A stretch of 64,000 nt of DNA from an uncultured Gammaproteobacteria bacterium (GCA_964551605.1 CAZKCV010000005.1:7104-71103), one strand, 5' to 3'. Counted from the first letter of the stretch, positions 46,791-53,486 are shown. Program-made: numbers and translations. Notes: a model not told the origin generated them from the sequence alone.

Positions 46791-47102
46791 TTAGGTCAAT
46801 TCTTTTCCCCACCATCCATACTTTTCCAAGTTTACCATGAAATCAGTCGTCACTTCTATGCCTTCCTGCTCCAGCAGAGCTTTTTGAAGCTTTTTGGGAT
46901 GGTCAAGACACTTAGTAGAAATAAATCCATGGCGGTTGACTACCCGATGCCAAGGGGTATTTTCTCCCTGGTAATGTAAAATTCCCCCCACTAACCTGGC
47001 CCCTCTTGGAATTCCCGCTAAAATAGCCACAGTACCATAAGAGGTTACCTTACCATAGGGAATCTTTTTTACAATTTTAATGACTCGATCTTTGAAGTTC
47101 AT
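46791..47102 (-). CDS. Alkyltransferase-like protein (ATL; MGMT DNA-binding domain with PWHRV in place of PCHRV), translationally coupled to the DGR reverse transcriptase
   Basis: 103 aa, VIKIVKKIPYGKVTSYGTVAILAGIPRGARLVGGILHYQGENTPWHRVVNRHGFIS, closely resembling E. coli YbaZ/Atl. Its ATG overlaps the RT stop (ATGA at 47099-47102). Confidence 0.8.
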   Translation of the reverse strand: MNFKDRVIKIVKKIPYGKVTSYGTVAILAGIPRGARLVGGILHYQGENTPWHRVVNRHGFISTKCLDHPKKLQKALLEQEGIEVTTDFMVNLEKYGWWGKELT

Positions 47103-48106
47103 TGAATAAAGTAAACCATATTTTTCAGGTTCTGGGCAACCTTAAAACTATTCGTATGACTTAAATACCCCAAATATGATTGCAAAGACTGGTTAAAATT
47201 TTCAGAACCAACTTTTTCATTTAATTTTTTAAATATCCTTTTTTTAGTTTTGGTTCTTGGTAATACATAGTGCGGCAGGGCAATATAACCCAGAAAATCA
47301 ATTCCCCAATCAGGTCGGCGAAGAATAATCTTTTTGGGATGTAATTCTAGTTTTAGTTTTTCTTGTAGAAACATCTTCATCAACTCGATTAAATGACTTA
47401 AATTATTTTTGCTGGTGGATAAAAATAAAAAGTCATCAGCATAACGAATATAATATTTAAACTTGAGCTTTTGTTTTATGTATTGATCCAACTCATTCAT
47501 GTAGATATTTGCGAAAACTTGAGAAGTTAGGTTGCCCAGTGGGATTCCTTTCTTTTCTCCGCATTCAGAATGGAAACTATTTATTATTTCCCCTAATAAC
47601 CATAAAATGTTTTGGTCATTAATCTTTTTCCTTAAAAACTTCAACAAGTTTTCATGGTTTACATTCGCAAAGAATTTTTTAATATCACATTTTAAAGCCC
47701 AACAAGGCCTTGTATAATTTCTGCTTATTTTCCGTGCAAACTTCTCAAGCCGCAGGACTCCTTTATGCGTTCCTTTTTCTAATCTGCAAGAATAGGAATC
47801 AAAAATAAAGGTTTTGTCGAAAATTTCGTTGAGATATTTATATAAAAGGTGATGAACAACCCTATCTTGCACTGATGCTTTATGAATGTGCCTTCTTTTT
47901 GGATCATGGACAAAGAAGGCAAAATAATTTCCGTGCCGATAGGTTTTCTTTATTAAACTCTCATGTAAAGCAAACAAATTATCTTCTAAATTTCTTTCAA
48001 ACTCTTGCACATCTTTCCTTTTTCTCTTACCAGCCCTAAACTCACTCCACGCTTGAAATAAATCCTCGGCTGATGTAAGTTGAGAATACGATTTATGAGT
48101 AATCAT
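47099..48106 (-). CDS. Diversity-generating retroelement (DGR) reverse transcriptase
   Basis: 335 aa with the RT palm motifs and the DGR-RT hallmark GIPLGNLTSQVFANIYMNELD (SQ in place of the group-II QG) plus YADD (YIRYADDFLFL). No maturase or endonuclease domains. Adjacent Avd, TR and VR. Confidence 0.85.
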   Translation of the reverse strand: MITHKSYSQLTSAEDLFQAWSEFRAGKRKRKDVQEFERNLEDNLFALHESLIKKTYRHGNYFAFFVHDPKRRHIHKASVQDRVVHHLLYKYLNEIFDKTFIFDSYSCRLEKGTHKGVLRLEKFARKISRNYTRPCWALKCDIKKFFANVNHENLLKFLRKKINDQNILWLLGEIINSFHSECGEKKGIPLGNLTSQVFANIYMNELDQYIKQKLKFKYYIRYADDFLFLSTSKNNLSHLIELMKMFLQEKLKLELHPKKIILRRPDWGIDFLGYIALPHYVLPRTKTKKRIFKKLNEKVGSENFNQSLQSYLGYLSHTNSFKVAQNLKNMVYFIQ

Positions 48107-48120
48107 CTTTTAAGAAATAC

Positions 48121-48135
48121 CACACACACACACAC
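48121..48135. repeat. (CA)7 dinucleotide microsatellite between the divergent RT and avd starts
   Basis: ccacacacacacacact read directly, 15-29 nt upstream of the RT ATG on the minus strand. On the plus strand it lies in the avd frame just upstream of the conserved Avd N-terminal helix. Confidence 0.9.
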
Positions 48136-48194
48136 TGGCTAAATCTAGCCTTGATATCCCGATTTTTGCTAAACTTTATGATTTTTACAAAAAT

Positions 48195-48485
48195 TTGAGT
48201 CAATTTCTGGCATCTTTTCCAAAAAACAAACGTTATACTTTAGGTCAAAAAATAGACCAAATCACTATAGATATTATTGAGCTGACTATTACGGCGGGAT
48301 ACTTACCCAGAGAGCAAAAACTACCAATTCTGCAAAAAATCAGTACCAAGCTTGACCTTTTAAAAATACTTTTAAGAATAGCCTGGGAAACAAAAAGCTT
48401 CAATAATAATAGGTACCAACTCCTAACCTCCCAGCTAATTGAAATAGGCAAAATGCTGGGAGGCTGGATTAAAATTTTTAGGTAA
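48195..48485 (+). CDS. avd: DGR accessory variability determinant (Avd; four-helix-bundle / IVS-like protein). Homology extends ~20 codons further upstream, to a possible CTG start at 48135
   Basis: ...FPKNKRYTLGQKIDQITIDIIELTITAGY... and C-terminal LLTSQLIEIGKMLGGWIKIF match the Avd/four-helix-bundle family. The upstream in-frame translation LAKSSLDIPIFAKLYDFYKN matches Avd helix 1 but has no ATG/GTG/TTG start. Confidence 0.65.
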   Translation: MSQFLASFPKNKRYTLGQKIDQITIDIIELTITAGYLPREQKLPILQKISTKLDLLKILLRIAWETKSFNNNRYQLLTSQLIEIGKMLGGWIKIFR

Positions 48486-48494
48486 CGGATGCTT

Positions 48495-48607
48495 CCAGAG
48501 GACGAAACGCAATATTGTCATTGTGGTTATCAGTCCAATTGTAGTTTACGTTACTCAAGCCACCATTGTCAGAATTCCCGCCAATGAGACGGTTATCGAC
48601 CCCGAAT
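48495..48607 (-). repeat. DGR template repeat (TR), 113 bp; sense strand (the adenine-bearing strand) is the minus strand
   Basis: It aligns with 48951-49063 without gaps. Of 23 mismatches, 22 are at TR positions that are A on the minus strand; the remaining one is C versus T. The TR frame reads FGVDNRLIGGNSDNGGLSNVNYNWTDNHNDNIAFRPL with 9 AAY codons. Confidence 0.9.
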
Positions 48608-48909
48608 ATAGTACCCAAATCCGCAACTTAACTCCACTGTGGCTTCATAACAAACTGTCGCCACTGTATTTTATCCCTCCGCCGGTAGGCGGAGCAAAGA
48701 TTCAGGCACGTAGCTTCCTTTTCCTAATTTTACCTGAGCATCACTCCCTTAATCTCCTTGAAGATTAAAGCTCTGGATACTTGATCCGGCAAAAAACAAG
48801 GTGATCCTAAACCGTAATCTAGAATTCATGAACCTTATCGAAGGAATTGTAAAAAAATAATCCCAAGTTTTCAAGAACTAAAAATTCAAGGGTTTTTCCA
48901 AGAAAAAAG

Positions 48910-49680
48910 TTACCAGGTTACCAAGCTTTGAGGCTGGGAAAGGAAAACTACCAGAGGACGAAACGCAAGACCGTCACAGTGGTGACCAGTCCAATCGTAG
49001 AGTACGTGACTCAAGCCACCACTGCCAGAACCCCCGCCAATGAAACGGTGAGCGACCCCGAACTTATCATCAAACCCCTCCCAAGTAGGATCTTCTCCTA
49101 AATACTGATAACGGAGATTTCCTGCAAAGTTAAACTCCGCAGCTTTCGGCCTTCTTATTGCCACCAGACCGGAAGCTATATGATCAACTAAACGTAGTGG
49201 TTTTGCTAATTCCGGGAATACATGGCTATCCTGTTCATCCATTGATACACCAAAACGGGAAGTTCTCGATCTGGTGCAACTAGGATCTTTAATTTTATCC
49301 AGACCTCTACCCGTTGCCAGAATTATACCGAACTCCTTATCTCCGGCAAATTCAGGTCTTCTGCTGTCATCAAATAAAGTCCAATAAGCTCCAATTTTAG
49401 CTGCATCAGGACTAATATTCGGCTTTCTGCCTGTCATCCATTCAAAAAACAGCGGATTTAATTTTTTCCAGCCGGGAGGTGTGGGTGAATCCAATCTGGT
49501 TTCTCCTAAAGGAAAATGGAAGGGTTTAAAGAAACCATACCCTTCACCTTCGGCTACTTTTTGCGATTCTAAAAACAACTTCGTGGGTACTGCAACGGGT
49601 ACATCAACTACTCCCAGCTTCTTTCTGTATTCTTCTTTAGCTTGTTCCACTAATTGGGGTGCACTAAGAAATTCTGACAT
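48910..49680 (-). CDS. DGR target (variable) protein with a C-terminal C-type-lectin/FGE-like fold carrying the VR; no signal peptide evident
   Basis: 256 aa. The C-terminus FGVAHRFIGGGSGSGGLSHVLYDWTGHHCDGLAFRPLVV is encoded by the VR, and every VR-specific residue sits at a TR AAY/GAY/ATT codon. Confidence 0.8.
   Translation of the reverse strand: MSEFLSAPQLVEQAKEEYRKKLGVVDVPVAVPTKLFLESQKVAEGEGYGFFKPFHFPLGETRLDSPTPPGWKKLNPLFFEWMTGRKPNISPDAAKIGAYWTLFDDSRRPEFAGDKEFGIILATGRGLDKIKDPSCTRSRTSRFGVSMDEQDSHVFPELAKPLRLVDHIASGLVAIRRPKAAEFNFAGNLRYQYLGEDPTWEGFDDKFGVAHRFIGGGSGSGGLSHVLYDWTGHHCDGLAFRPLVVFLSQPQSLVTW
48951..49063 (-). repeat. DGR variable repeat (VR) at the 3' end of the target gene
   Basis: See the TR entry. 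The 3'-end (IMH-side) identity ends exactly at ...CGTTTCGTCCTCTGG. Confidence 0.9.
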
Positions 49681-49701: not shown

Positions 49702-51402
49702 CTATGAGATATTTGTCAATAGTTTTAAAAGTTCGGCTTTGGAAATAACCCCAATTTTTCTGCCCACTTCTTTCCCGTCTTTTAGGACAATGTAGGTTGG
49801 GATGCTCATCACTCCATGCTCACTGGCTTTAGCTTGATTATCATCAACATTAATTTTTTCTATTTCCACCTTACCAGCCAGCTCTTTTTCCAATTCTTCA
49901 ATCACAGGCTCCATTACTTTACAGGGCCCACAATTATGAGAGACCATCCCATTAGTTATAACGGTATGAGGGTCGCCGACTGTAATACCTATTACATCAC
50001 GACTATCTGCTTCTTCAATTGATAAGACTCTTTCCCACAATAAGTTTCCTTGTTGACGCTGTTCCAACCATTTTATAAATAAAGCCTCACCGCCTTTAGC
50101 AGGATACACTACTTGAGTATCTCTATTTGCATAATTCCAGCTAACTATTGTGCCAACTGGGATTTGCAAACTCTCAGCAATTTGGTTACTGCTGACTCCT
50201 AAGGCTAACTGCTGAAGAGCAATTTGCTTTGCTTGAATATAACGATTACGTTCAAAAAGTCTGTACTGTAAAAACTCCCTGATAAAAGGAATGCTAACAT
50301 TCTTTGATCTAGCATAAGCGTAGCCAATACTAGCTAAGTTAAATAGCGATTGATAGTCAGTAGCTACTCTGAGTGAAATAATTACCCCGTCTTCATCATC
50401 ACTGCTTGATATATCCCTTACTTCAACTCCCAATTGTTCAAGTAATAATCCCAGTTGTTTCGCGTAAAGAATTCCCTCTCTCTCTAAATATTTTTCTTTA
50501 TGGAATTCAATTGCATTAACAGAAAATCTAGCATCATGAGAACTGCTACCTGCATGTTTCATTTGATAAGCAATTTTGCATCCATCTCCACCCAACCAGC
50601 CACTCAGAAAAGCTTTCTTGACTAAAATATCTCCCTCCATAATCCAATCTGGGATAAAATAAGCCTGGTTCTTTTTTCTGCCTTCTGGACAACCCAAAGC
50701 TTTTAGCAGAAAAAACAATGTTCTATTGAGATTGCGGCAACGTAAAATGTGTATGGTAAATTTTCTCTCACCAATTTGACGATCTTTAACTTGCCTTTTG
50801 ATTTCTAGTTTATCAAAACCTAGAATCTGTAGATCCTCTTTTATAGTCCTGGCATCATCTTCTGTGCCCACAAAGAAATGTGTCTCGTAAATATTGTGTT
50901 TTAAATCCTCATATAGATAACCATCAGTCATCACAAACCCAAGTAGTCTGGCTAAAATGGGTAGCCGTGAATTATTAGCTTTCAGAGGCAACAAACCCAA
51001 TTGAGTAAGTATCTTATCCGCAAAGATATTGCCAACAGAAGTCAGAATTACCTGATCATTATCTGATTCAAAAACTGGATTATCCTGAGCTGGATTAACC
51101 AGAATACTATCACCAATTATTAACTCTCTCAACTTCTTAAAACCTTCTTGAGTTAAGGCTAAATGATTGATATCTCCTATTAATTCTCTACCTGTTTCCA
51201 AAACTATTTTTTTAGAAAGTGCATTTTTAAAAATTCTTATCTTTTGGACTTTTTGAATTGATTGTTTTTTGGTCTTTGGATCAATTGCGACTAATTTTTG
51301 TCCTACCTGAACTTGTAAAGCTTTTATATAACCATTTTCAGTTAAAACCGGAGTTTCCGGATCAATACACCAAGGTGCCCAAAAATCCAAAAGTTTCATC
51401 AT
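49702..51402 (-). CDS. trxA: Thioredoxin interrupted by a 479-aa intein (precursor 566 aa; mature Trx ~87 aa)
   Basis: N-extein MMKLLDFWAPW plus C-extein CGPCKVMEP...IPTYIVLKDGKEVGRKIGVISKAELLKLL reconstitute a canonical thioredoxin (DFWAPWCGPCK). The insert begins with C and ends ...VSHN before the +1 Cys. Confidence 0.85.
   Translation of the reverse strand: MMKLLDFWAPWCIDPETPVLTENGYIKALQVQVGQKLVAIDPKTKKQSIQKVQKIRIFKNALSKKIVLETGRELIGDINHLALTQEGFKKLRELIIGDSILVNPAQDNPVFESDNDQVILTSVGNIFADKILTQLGLLPLKANNSRLPILARLLGFVMTDGYLYEDLKHNIYETHFFVGTEDDARTIKEDLQILGFDKLEIKRQVKDRQIGERKFTIHILRCRNLNRTLFFLLKALGCPEGRKKNQAYFIPDWIMEGDILVKKAFLSGWLGGDGCKIAYQMKHAGSSSHDARFSVNAIEFHKEKYLEREGILYAKQLGLLLEQLGVEVRDISSSDDEDGVIISLRVATDYQSLFNLASIGYAYARSKNVSIPFIREFLQYRLFERNRYIQAKQIALQQLALGVSSNQIAESLQIPVGTIVSWNYANRDTQVVYPAKGGEALFIKWLEQRQQGNLLWERVLSIEEADSRDVIGITVGDPHTVITNGMVSHNCGPCKVMEPVIEELEKELAGKVEIEKINVDDNQAKASEHGVMSIPTYIVLKDGKEVGRKIGVISKAELLKLLTNIS
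49933..51369 (-). mobile_element. Intein with LAGLIDADG homing endonuclease domain inserted at the thioredoxin WC|GPC active site
   Basis: Block A CIDPETPVLTENGYIKAL, two dodecapeptide motifs LLGFVMTDGYL and FLSGWLGGDGCK, and terminal block DVIGITVGDPHTVITNGMVSHN followed by Cys+1. Confidence 0.8.
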
Positions 51403-51479: not shown

Positions 51480-53486
51480 ATGCCCAACTTCCTCTTAGAT
51501 GACCTAAATCCTATCCAAAAACAAGCTGTCCAAGCCACCGAAGGTCCAGTTCTAATTTTAGCGGGGGCGGGTTCCGGTAAAACTAAAGTCTTAACCCACC
51601 GGGTGGCTTATTTAATCCAAGATAAAGGTATACCGCCGGAAAATATCCTATGTCTGACTTTCACCAATAAAGCTGCTGGTGAAATGATGGACCGGATTAG
51701 GAAACTTCTCCAAACTACCAACTACCAACTACCAACTACTCCCATCATGGGCACATTCCATAGCTTTTGCGCCAGGATCCTGCGCCGTGAGGGTCGGACC
51801 CTGGGACTCCCACCGGGATTTGCCATCTATGACGAAGGTGACACGCTGGACGCAGTAAAAGAAGCCATGGGCAATTTAAACATCCCCACCCAAAAAACTT
51901 CCCCCCACTCTGTCCGGACTACCATTTCCGGCGCTAAAAATGAACTCATCTCTTCCCTGGAATACCCCCAATATGCCAGGGGTTACTTTCAGGAAACGGT
52001 CGCCAAGATTTACCTGGAATACCAGAAAATTCTAGAGCGTAATCACGCCCTGGACTTTGATGACCTACTACTGTATGTCATTAGGTTATTCCAGGCCGAA
52101 CCCGCTATTTTAACCCGCTACCAAATTCAATTCAAATACATCTTAATTGACGAATACCAGGACACCAACCCGGCTCAATATCTAATCAGTAAGTATTTAG
52201 CCAACCGCCACAAAAACATCTGCGTGGTGGGAGATGCCAGCCAATCAATTTATTCCTTCCGGGGAGCTGATTTCCGCAATATTGTGAATTTTCAAAAAGA
52301 CTACCCGAATACTAAAGTCTTTAATCTTGAGCAAAATTACCGTTCTACTCAAAATATTCTGGATGCGGCCTTTGCAGTCATTTCCAAAAATAAATCCCAT
52401 CCAATCTTAAAGCTTTGGACTGATAACGATAGCGGAGAGAAAATTGAAGTGGTGGAAGTGAGAAATGAGATTGAGGAAACCTTATTTATCCTAAATACCA
52501 TCGCTCACCTCCGAGGTGAGCTTAAGACGACACCAGGATCACACCTCGGAGGTGTAACAAAATTATCTGATTTTGCCATCCTTTACAGAACCAATGCCCA
52601 ATCCAGATCTTTAGAAGAACAATTTCTAAAAGCCGGCATTCCATATCAACTAGTCGGCGGGGTCAGTTTCTATGCCAGAAAGGAAATTAAAGATGTTTTA
52701 GCTTATCTTCGCTTACTGCAAAACCCCAAAGATTCCGTATCCTTAAAACGGGCAGAGAAAATCGGTAAAGGAAGGCTCACCAAAATCATGGAACTCCAAA
52801 ACGTCATTGCGAGCGAAGCGAAGCAATCTGGCCCAGATAATAACCCCACCCAGATTGCTTCGTCGCCCCGTACCGTACGGTACGGGGCTCCTCGCAATGA
52901 CGACTTGTCTTGCACTACCCTTGAACTTCTGGACAAGATCCTAGAGGTAGCAGGTTATTTGACTTACCTGGACGATAGTACCGAAGAAGGAAAAATCCGG
53001 ATAGAAAACGTCAAAGAGCTACGCTCTGTAGCAGAAGAATTTCCTGATCTAACTAACTTTTTAGAAAACGTTGCTTTAATGGAAGCTTCCGATACACCGA
53101 AACACCGAAACACTGAAACGCTGAAAAAAGATGCCGTTACCTTAATGACCTTGCATTCCGCCAAAGGCTTAGAGTTTCCGGTCATTTTTATGGTTGGCAT
53201 GGAAGAAGGTCTATTCCCCCATTCAAGGTCTATGTTAGATCTTCATGAACTGGAAGAAGAAAGAAGACTTTGTTATGTTGGCATTACTAGGGCTAAAGAA
53301 AAATTGTACTTAACTTATACCAAGCAAAGGTTATATTTTGGCCAAAGAAGCAATAATTTAGTATCCAGATTTTTAGGAGATATCCCTCAGGATTTAATTT
53401 TAAGCAATACCAATTTTCGGGATCAGGATAGCTTTTTAGATGATGTTACTAGTAATATCAATGAGGACGATTGGCTAAAGATTTGA
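51480..53486 (+). CDS. uvrD: ATP-dependent DNA helicase UvrD/PcrA family, carrying several in-frame repeat insertions
   Basis: Walker A AGAGSGKTKVLTHRVAYLI, motifs TFTNKAAGEM, GTFHSFC, DEYQDTNPAQY, VGDASQSIYSFRGAD, TLHSAKGLEFPVIF, and VGITRAKEKLYLTY. Confidence 0.85.
   Translation: MPNFLLDDLNPIQKQAVQATEGPVLILAGAGSGKTKVLTHRVAYLIQDKGIPPENILCLTFTNKAAGEMMDRIRKLLQTTNYQLPTTPIMGTFHSFCARILRREGRTLGLPPGFAIYDEGDTLDAVKEAMGNLNIPTQKTSPHSVRTTISGAKNELISSLEYPQYARGYFQETVAKIYLEYQKILERNHALDFDDLLLYVIRLFQAEPAILTRYQIQFKYILIDEYQDTNPAQYLISKYLANRHKNICVVGDASQSIYSFRGADFRNIVNFQKDYPNTKVFNLEQNYRSTQNILDAAFAVISKNKSHPILKLWTDNDSGEKIEVVEVRNEIEETLFILNTIAHLRGELKTTPGSHLGGVTKLSDFAILYRTNAQSRSLEEQFLKAGIPYQLVGGVSFYARKEIKDVLAYLRLLQNPKDSVSLKRAEKIGKGRLTKIMELQNVIASEAKQSGPDNNPTQIASSPRTVRYGAPRNDDLSCTTLELLDKILEVAGYLTYLDDSTEEGKIRIENVKELRSVAEEFPDLTNFLENVALMEASDTPKHRNTETLKKDAVTLMTLHSAKGLEFPVIFMVGMEEGLFPHSRSMLDLHELEEERRLCYVGITRAKEKLYLTYTKQRLYFGQRSNNLVSRFLGDIPQDLILSNTNFRDQDSFLDDVTSNINEDDWLKI
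51713..51740. repeat. Heptanucleotide tandem repeat (AACTACC) x3 perfect + 1 imperfect, in frame within uvrD (encodes TTNYQLPTTP between helicase motifs Ia and II)
   Basis: aactaccaactaccaactaccaactact read directly. Related CTACCA-type heptads occur in the FemAB-like gene (59408-59476) and sbcD (62894-62914). Confidence 0.85.
52503..52557. repeat. Two CACCTC-N-GAGGTG palindromes (GCTCACCTC-C-GAGGTGAGC and ACACCTC-G-GAGGTGT) in frame within uvrD; same core as the 14862/25424 repeat
   Basis: Direct reading. They encode HLRGELKTTPGSHLGGVTKL, a segment absent from typical UvrD alignments at this position. Confidence 0.7.
52803..52901. repeat. 99-bp in-frame palindromic (MITE-like) element in uvrD, with perfect 11-bp TIRs GTCATTGCGAG / CTCGCAATGAC, an internal 13-bp inverted repeat and a 22-bp perfect palindrome
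   Basis: gtcattgcgagcgaagcgaagcaatctgg...ccagattgcttcgtcgCCCCGTACCGTACGGTACGGGGctcctcgcaatgac. It is exactly 33 codons (VIASEAKQSGPDNNPTQIASSPRTVRYGAPRNDD) and belongs to the GTCATYC family. Confidence 0.85.
53098..53127. repeat. Octamer-like tandem repeat ACCGAAAC/ACCGAAAC/ACTGAAAC/GCTGAAAA in frame within uvrD
   Basis: accgaaacaccgaaacactgaaacgctgaaaa encodes TPKHRNTETLKK just before the conserved motif V region. Confidence 0.6.

Follow-up and report, generated by a model that had tools for sequence, protein, structure and literature searches.

The diversity-generating retroelement (DGR) of Bordetella phage BPP-1 has the order mtd-avd-TR-brt, where TR is the template region, and its ribonucleoprotein has been described (Handa et al., 2024, bioRxiv 10.1101/2023.10.23.563531; PDB 8ub7). 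DGRs of the candidate phyla radiation (CPR, or Patescibacteria) fall in DGR clade 2, and their targets typically have neither a transmembrane (TM) segment nor a signal peptide (Roux et al., 2021, PMC8144416). Architecture B3, written TR-(avd)-RT with the parentheses marking the reverse strand and RT standing for the reverse transcriptase, makes up 90% of a collection of CPR DGRs (Wu et al., 2018, PMC5758913). Among the RNA motifs RT-1 to RT-19, which were found near RT genes, only RT-10, the spacer 3′ of TR in the Bordetella phage, has been tied to a DGR, and RT-16 has been left unassigned (Weinberg et al., 2017, PMC5737381). Here we analyze a locus in a 64,000-nt stretch of DNA from an uncultured Gammaproteobacteria bacterium (GCA_964551605.1, CAZKCV010000005.1:7104-71103; the window, numbered from its first letter), in which a complete DGR had been predicted at 46791-49680. 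Judged from its sequence, the element is a genuine and complete DGR. We are largely confident that it is a chromosomal, CPR-type DGR with the B3 layout target(VR)-TR-(avd)-RT, VR being the variable region, and that its avd gene is frame-shifted, so that the element is probably off (Table 1). As a DGR it is one more example of a well-catalogued class; the points worth following up are an RT-16-like RNA domain 5′ of TR with a long-range helix, and a repeat that would set the reading frame of avd.

The TR and VR align without gaps over 116 bp and differ at 20 positions, 19 of which are TR adenines; with 32 adenines in the 116 nt of TR, this bias has a hypergeometric P of 2e-12. The original prediction was based on a 113-bp core (48495-48607 and 48951-49063), whose gapless alignment at an offset of 456 is confirmed. 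Its 23 differences come down on recounting to 19, and its 22 differences at template adenines to 18 at minus-strand TR adenines (plus-strand T). The codon-level description is exact: TR has nine AAY codons, three GAY codons and one ATT codon at sites whose residue in VR is A, H, G, S, L, D or C. The single non-adenine difference, C in TR and T in VR, lies in target codon 213. In the target frame, 22 codons of TR contain adenine, from which about 1e18 different proteins could in theory be made; substitution of TR adenines never yields a stop codon. The VR ends 36 nt before the target stop codon and is the only one present, as neither further VRs nor remote targets were found in the 64-kb window. 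The A-free stretch TTGCGTTTCGTCCTCTGG at the 3′ end of VR is identical in TR (48495-48512), and the flanks of TR and VR diverge past it; by comparison with IMH and IMH* of the Bordetella phage, this 18-nt segment may act as the initiation of mutagenic homing (IMH) site.

For comparison, two independent sets of 80 loci each with RT relatives were assembled, one from species-representative genomes and the other from metagenomes, the two collections containing 489 and 503 RT relatives, respectively (individual loci are designated L followed by a number). Adenine-biased TR/VR pairs occur at 55 of the 80 genome loci; in the siblings L002 and L169, adenines account for 21 of 22 and 18 of 20 differences, respectively. 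As read from the alignments, the TR/VR pattern shows past mutagenic homing.

The RT matches Pfam RVT_1 (5e-26) and contains GIPLGNLTSQ and RYADDF, which represent DGR motif 4 ([I/L/V]GxxxSQ) and the catalytic YxDD. Of the two motifs named in the original prediction, YADD is present, and the other, given as IGNLTSQ, actually reads LGNLTSQ. The nearest solved structure is that of the Bordetella phage bRT (8ub7, E=1.8e-37), with group II intron RTs at about 1e-17. The avd product is recognized by Pfam bAvd (1.7e-17) and by the NCBIfam equivalog model "diversity-generating retroelement protein Avd" (DivGenRetAVD; 94 bits, cut-off 80), and a search by sequence against solved structures gave no meaningful match for it. 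As predicted, the avd stop ends at 48485, 9 nt short of 48495, and the target, TR and RT are minus-sense with avd plus-sense. The RT also has sub-threshold matches to models of group II intron, retron and DRT enzymes, so that the 113-bp copies might be regarded as an ordinary duplication or gene-conversion tract lying beside an unrelated RT of a group II intron, retron or defence system. However, every non-DGR RT model of NCBIfam scored far below its cut-off, bRT is the nearest solved relative by 20 orders of magnitude in E-value, the DGR-specific Avd adjoins the RT, Rfam gave no group II intron RNA, and both the adenine bias of the mismatches and the placement of the AAY codons are typical of DGRs. 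The mismatch spectrum, the RT models and the solved relatives have effectively refuted such a duplication already, and we assign it a negligible probability. All tests that were run, on the TR/VR pair, RT, Avd and target fold, agree with a complete DGR having an adenine-specific TR/VR pair.

The product of the target gene has no Pfam or NCBIfam match, Pfam FGE-sulfatase included. Modelling of the protein against C-type-lectin and FGE folds, which had been proposed as a check, gave an FGE/C-type-lectin fold resembling known DGR variable proteins, with the VR at the C-terminus. No signal peptide is apparent by eye; the N-terminus is hydrophilic and is modelled as a helix. The lack of a signal peptide had been pointed out as a peculiarity of this target, but it is the reported norm for CPR DGRs (Roux et al., 2021, PMC8144416).

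The gene order had likewise been called unusual, but it is the published B3 layout: TR is followed by a reversed avd and RT, and the target lies upstream. Hosts of the RT relatives are nearly all Patescibacteria, and the best relatives belong to metagenome-assembled genomes (MAGs) of Microgenomates, Woesebacteria and Levybacteria. The avd gene is on the opposite strand directly upstream of RT at about 70 of the 80 genome loci and at all 66 metagenome loci in which avd was detected. At the 55 genome loci with adenine-biased pairs, TR is upstream of avd on the RT strand in nearly all cases, and VR is usually just upstream of TR, being inverted or downstream in some. Therefore, both of the features singled out, the gene order and the signal-peptide-free target, are the norm for the CPR DGR class. 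Because the genes that flank the element are housekeeping genes (triosephosphate isomerase and thioredoxin), the element is assigned to the chromosome.

The region between the target gene and TR encodes a structured domain of the DGR RNA. Rfam RT-16 (RF03019) is matched over its full length (positions 1-158) by 48603-48770 of the minus strand, up to the start of TR. The domain consists of a P1 hairpin, a strand termed J, and a multi-helix element, P2, with the near-invariant junction AUAAAAUACAG (48674-48664). The pre-TR regions of 24 loci were aligned (alignment A2) to build a covariance model, R1; a first MAFFT alignment (A1), which mixed two subtypes and recovered one helix, was replaced by A2 and R1. 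RNAalifold on the MAFFT alignment of 24 loci predicted 30 pairs, 27 of them with compensatory changes. In the window, R1 matches 48579-48779 (77.7 bits, E=6e-19). A single R1 copy, directly adjoining TR and in its orientation, was found in the window and at each of 69 of the 80 genome loci; in the metagenome set, 53 of 81 loci have a match, 51 on the RT strand upstream of RT. In the alignment of 70 copies, which was fitted to R1 itself, 95.6% of the cells are paired, and the covariation value is 0.94, versus about 0.15 when the partners are slid by 1-3 columns. G-U pairs are frequent, and therefore the structure belongs to the minus strand as RNA. The RT-16 model gave only 25 bits on L035, the best member of R1, and no match on L001, so that the DGR-linked RNA family is much broader than the Rfam seed. 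At gathering thresholds, Rfam detected tRNAs and one LOOT RNA in 11 relatives, and no RT-16.

The J strand, located between helices P1 and P2, is complementary to the D strand, which comprises the final nucleotides of TR and the flank that follows them. In the window, the J-D duplex has a calculated energy of -15.3 kcal/mol (RNAduplex). Over 54 loci, the mean of cognate duplexes is -13.2 kcal/mol versus -9.9 +/- 0.37 for permuted ones (z=-9; 0 of 20000 permutations), and control segments of the same loci have means of -9.5 and -8.0 kcal/mol. A compensatory change in this helix distinguishes the window from L002, the sibling nearest to it (GGA/UCC versus GGG/CCC). We infer from this arrangement that the DGR RNA of the clade is permuted relative to that of the Bordetella phage, with a structured domain that pairs with the 3′ end of TR placed upstream of TR; such a geometry would still permit priming in cis from the 3′ edge of the J helix.

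A promoter-like site occurs between the target stop and the structured RNA, just downstream of the target gene. At the matching position L002 has TTGAAA-17-TAAAAT, and across 70 loci hexamers resembling a -10 box are concentrated in the interval from -72 to -67 relative to the R1 start, with 41 of them there. Many relatives (e.g., L010, L018, L025, L030 and L035) have an additional hairpin with a conserved UUACGG-like loop between the -10 box and the R1 start, and therefore the 5′ end of the RNA is probably some 55-60 nt upstream of 48779. The equivalent of this hairpin in the window (about 48800-48826, minus strand) is a weak stem. On the 3′ side, 45 of 54 relatives have a strong terminator-like hairpin that follows TR and precedes the avd stop, in 17 of them with a T-rich tail; in those relatives the TR RNA therefore need not be antisense to avd. 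A terminator scan of the region in the window found no sites. The stem at 48427-48463 may stand in for the hairpin of the relatives; it is weakly conserved in L002 and its status is uncertain. The statement that the TR RNA can arise only in antisense to avd or through transcription continuing from the target gene is thus incomplete, since a promoter-like site of its own is conserved in position and a hairpin separates TR from avd in relatives. What holds of the antisense part is that, in the window, the end of avd (its stop and last codons) is covered in antisense by the D strand, in the 3′ closing helix of the RNA; the overlap is limited to that helix.

The avd frame is open from 48114 and contains no ATG, GTG or TTG before the TTG at 48195. 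A start at this TTG would delete the first avd helix, and position 2 of the NCBIfam Avd profile corresponds to 48159. The ATG at 48095, which overlaps RT codons 1-4 in antisense, opens a reading frame that runs through the CA tract as MSNHLLRNTTHTHTG and then stops, one frame off avd. This (CA)7 tract is the sole simple repeat in the 64-kb window and, seen from the opposite strand, precedes the RT ATG by 15 nt; the avd frame would be restored by one additional CA unit or by the loss of two. In relatives without the repeat, avd and RT have their ATG codons back to back. The pattern M-x(3-8)-(HT)n-...DIPIF is found at the N-terminus of many homologues in the database. One of them, P0030 (MSNHLLKDTTHTHTLPNFSLDIPIF), is encoded at L169 by a homologous leader with (CA)8 in frame, beside an adenine-biased TR/VR pair, and the window allele would therefore need one more CA unit to be in frame. 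The protein database contained no in-frame (ON) allele of the avd of this strain, the best match being 85% identical.

Dinucleotide repeats of six or more units were counted in 160 related loci (1.1 Mb). The total is 36, of which 25 are in the avd-RT spacer, nine in one loop of RT just before motif 4, and two elsewhere. The spacer repeats are of the types (CA)n, (GA)n and (CT)n, and beside the window they are found at L001-L006, L008, L014, L043, L046, L047, L056, L074, L089-L102, L151, L168 and L169. The repeats in the RT loop are (GA)6-25 (L026, L029, L038, L061, L129, L140, L156, L161 and L164); all nine are in frame and encode (RE)n at residues of about 180-200, before GIPIGNLTSQ. The RT of the window has no repeat in this loop. 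With respect to the upstream ATG, the spacer repeats are found in all three phases. Two contigs, L047 from a MAG and L151 from a metagenome, are identical over 4960 nt except that one has (TC)12 and the other (TC)9, both in frame, which is direct evidence that the length of the tract is unstable. In run SRR4343430, two contigs (L082 and L088) end and start exactly at the CA tract (window 48123-48150), with a 28-nt overlap, and a contig of SRR4343428 runs straight through the tract; the break is suggestive, being the pattern expected if alleles of 6, 7 and 8 units coexist, and sequencing stutter could also produce it. An isoleucine codon upstream of the tract, seen by eye in about 9-10 of 16 CA-tract loci, was considered as an alternative start and was rejected because its frequency is not clearly above expectation in an AT-rich genome. 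In the literature searched, we found no link of DGRs with simple repeats or phase variation.

We put forward, tentatively and at somewhat less than even probability, that a considerable share of CPR DGRs, the window element among them, is under a slipped-strand on/off switch that acts through the repeat in the avd leader or, in other lineages, in the RT loop and that, independently, the RNA of these elements is permuted relative to that of the Bordetella phage. The frame-setting avd repeat as a switch is a hypothesis drawn from comparative evidence. Several observations weigh against parts of our overall reading of the locus, the off state included. A gathering score of 50 is not reached by the RT-16 match (43.8 bits, E=3e-5); a region-wide promoter scan is not above chance (13 sites versus 9 expected); the compact hairpin after TR is absent in both the window and L002; and the priming site and the permuted arrangement of the RNA are things that we infer. 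A GC-rich inverted repeat after VR was not seen by eye, and the region scan gave no terminator-like site there; only 34% of DGRs have inverted repeats of this kind (Wu et al., 2018, PMC5758913). The in-frame fraction of the spacer repeats with respect to the upstream ATG is 4 of 24, below the chance expectation of one-third, which leaves room for another mode of Avd expression. Finally, avd may start at a non-canonical codon (CTG 48135 or ATA 48117), in which case the element would be constitutively on.

This last possibility, in which Avd is made from CTG 48135 or ATA 48117 and the CA tract is an unstructured leader or translation enhancer of a constitutively active element, seems to us rather unlikely, although it accounts for several facts. 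The avd body is intact and is conserved at 50-88% identity in relatives, and 20 of 24 repeat-bearing loci are out of frame under the ATG model, yet their avd open reading frames (ORFs) are intact. A CTG directly follows the tract in the window, L001, L002, L004, L006 and L014. CA-rich leaders have been reported to enhance translation in E. coli, which would suit a role of the tract as an enhancer. However, L003 and L005 have no CTG after the tract, many homologues start at ATG and have the tract as (HT)n in their protein, behind the MSNHLL leader that is also encoded by the out-of-frame ORF of the window, and the repeat-free relatives begin avd at the ATG that is back to back with the RT ATG. 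The Logan contig L081, for which no avd gene was called, also speaks against a constitutive start.

As for the present state of the element, the (CA)7 tract separates avd from its ATG by a frameshift, and therefore the element, judged from the reading frame, is probably switched off at present. The target protein and its underlying DNA, VR included, are identical on contigs from six metagenome runs (these are consensus assemblies, in which minority variants are invisible), and no VR variants of the strain were found in the public assemblies, the 90% identity cluster of the target having one member. The identity of VR across the six runs fits an off state. It would also be expected of a decaying relic in which the avd start has been lost for good and the TR/VR pair records past activity; the runs belong to at least two run series, avd has no in-frame canonical start, one TR/VR difference is not at an adenine, and the compact hairpin after TR is lost. 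Against decay, none of the three ORFs is otherwise damaged and the catalytic motifs are there, 95% of TR/VR differences are adenine-specific, and neither the 5′ RNA domain nor the J-D helix has been lost. Moreover, the frame defect lies in a repeat that is conserved across a subclade whose RTs are as little as 59% identical, and a change of one unit would reverse it. We consider a relic improbable, and an element that is probably off at present is the reading that we retain for the window.

As summarized in the model that we propose, an RNA of about 400 nt would have a promoter of its own, located shortly after the target gene. RT and Avd would then bind this RNA and copy TR into cDNA, with misincorporation opposite adenines, and the cDNA would replace VR, anchored by the A-free identical 3′ segment of 18 nt. 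If a repeat indeed shifts the frame, hypermutation of the target would be on only in a subpopulation, and the window would represent the off allele. Targeted hypermutation that is stochastically gated in this way is suggested by the occurrence of repeats at two fixed sites and of in-frame and out-of-frame avd alleles. For the RNA, the orphan Rfam RT-16 and its wider relatives can be identified with the 5′ domain of the template RNA in the group of bacteria that is richest in DGRs, and the long-range J-D helix offers a concrete model of the priming geometry when avd occupies the position of the phage spacer.

Table 1. Features of the DGR locus, in window coordinates.
Feature	Position	Strand	Basis or remark
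DGR target gene, 256 aa	48910..49680	-	essentially one FGE/C-type-lectin-like domain
Variable region (VR), codons 206-244 of 256	48948..49063	-	gapless alignment to TR
IMH-like 3′ end of VR	48951..48968	-	18-nt A-free stretch TTGCGTTTCGTCCTCTGG, read from TR/VR alignment
Promoter-like site, TTGAAA-17 nt-TACAAT	48846..48874	-	motif scan, 10/12 matches
Structured 5′ domain of DGR RNA, Rfam RT-16-like	48603..48779	-	Rfam and covariance model R1
J strand of 5′ domain	48708..48739	-	RNAduplex pairing with D strand
Template region (TR), 32 adenines	48492..48607	-	gapless alignment to VR
D strand, last TR bases and 3′ flank	48470..48493	-	pairs with J
9-bp stem CCTCCCAGC/GCTGGGAGG, 19-nt loop, antisense in avd codons	48427..48463	-	sequence reading and minimum free energy fold
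avd body (accessory variability determinant)	48135..48485	+	Pfam bAvd, NCBIfam DivGenRetAVD
avd leader ORF, MSNHLLRNTTHTHTG and stop	48095..48142	+	frame check; out of frame with avd body
(CA)7 dinucleotide repeat, between avd ATG and avd body	48121..48134	+	repeat scan
DGR reverse transcriptase, 335 aa, LGNLTSQ and YADD	47099..48106	-	Pfam RVT_1

The left end of the interval predicted for the element, 46791-47102, lies outside RT and belongs to a separate minus-strand ORF of 103 aa that encodes an MGMT-family DNA-binding protein. PWHRV replaces the catalytic PCHRV in this protein, which makes it alkyltransferase-like (ATL). The ORF overlaps the RT stop codon by 4 nt and is probably co-transcribed with RT. 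It was considered as an accessory gene of the DGR and rejected, because among 80 relatives only L004 has it, 5 kb away; at L169, a PRPP synthetase gene is found downstream of RT instead. On the other side of the element, the thioredoxin gene (49702-51402, minus strand) has an apparent intein in its WCGPC active-site motif (...FWAPW|C...intein...HN|CGPCK...), for which Pfam Intein_splicing scores 35.5 bits, just below the cut-off of 35.8. Farther along, a UvrD/PcrA-like helicase ORF (51480-53486, plus strand) contains an odd low-complexity insertion (...ASEAKQSGPDNNPTQIASSPRTVRYGAPRNDD...) around 52700-52940, which resembles a palindromic repeat element read through in frame.

Compared with BPP-1, the window element is chromosomal rather than phage-borne, and its avd is on the opposite strand, downstream of TR. 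The large structured RNA of BPP-1 is the spacer 3′ of TR (Rfam RT-10), whereas in the window an RT-16-like domain is located 5′ of TR, and the J strand, which pairs with the 3′ end of TR, accordingly lies upstream of it. No GC-rich hairpin was found after VR in the window, in contrast to the phage. With Rfam RT-16, the window shares the conserved core AUAAAAUACAG...GCGACA...UGAAGC. The target protein, as modelled, has the FGE/pFGE fold in common with Treponema denticola TvpA, Thermus TaqVP and Mtd, at only 13-15% sequence identity, and it differs from TvpA, TaqVP and Mtd in being a single domain without a lipobox or signal sequence.

The closest described class is that of the CPR DGRs of architecture B3 and clade 2, with which the window agrees in gene order, strands and host group, and in a small target that has a C-terminal VR and no recognizable domain, TM segment or signal peptide. 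Nothing essential differs. The TR-avd junction of the window is unusually tight (6-9 nt, with no hairpin), and its avd leader carries the frame-shifting (CA)7. Neither a 5′ RNA domain nor repeats were found to be described for this class in the literature searched. The repeat finds its nearest likeness in the simple sequence repeat contingency loci, such as the phase-variable genes of Haemophilus and Neisseria. Like those, the window has a short tandem repeat in the 5′ coding region after the ATG that sets the frame, in the order ATG 48095, (CA)7 and avd body; its close relatives include both in-frame and out-of-frame alleles, and the 5-kb sequences of L047 and L151 differ in the repeat only. 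It differs from those loci in that the unit is a dinucleotide, the host is a CPR bacterium, and the gene concerned serves a mutagenic retroelement as its accessory factor, instead of encoding a surface or restriction-modification function.

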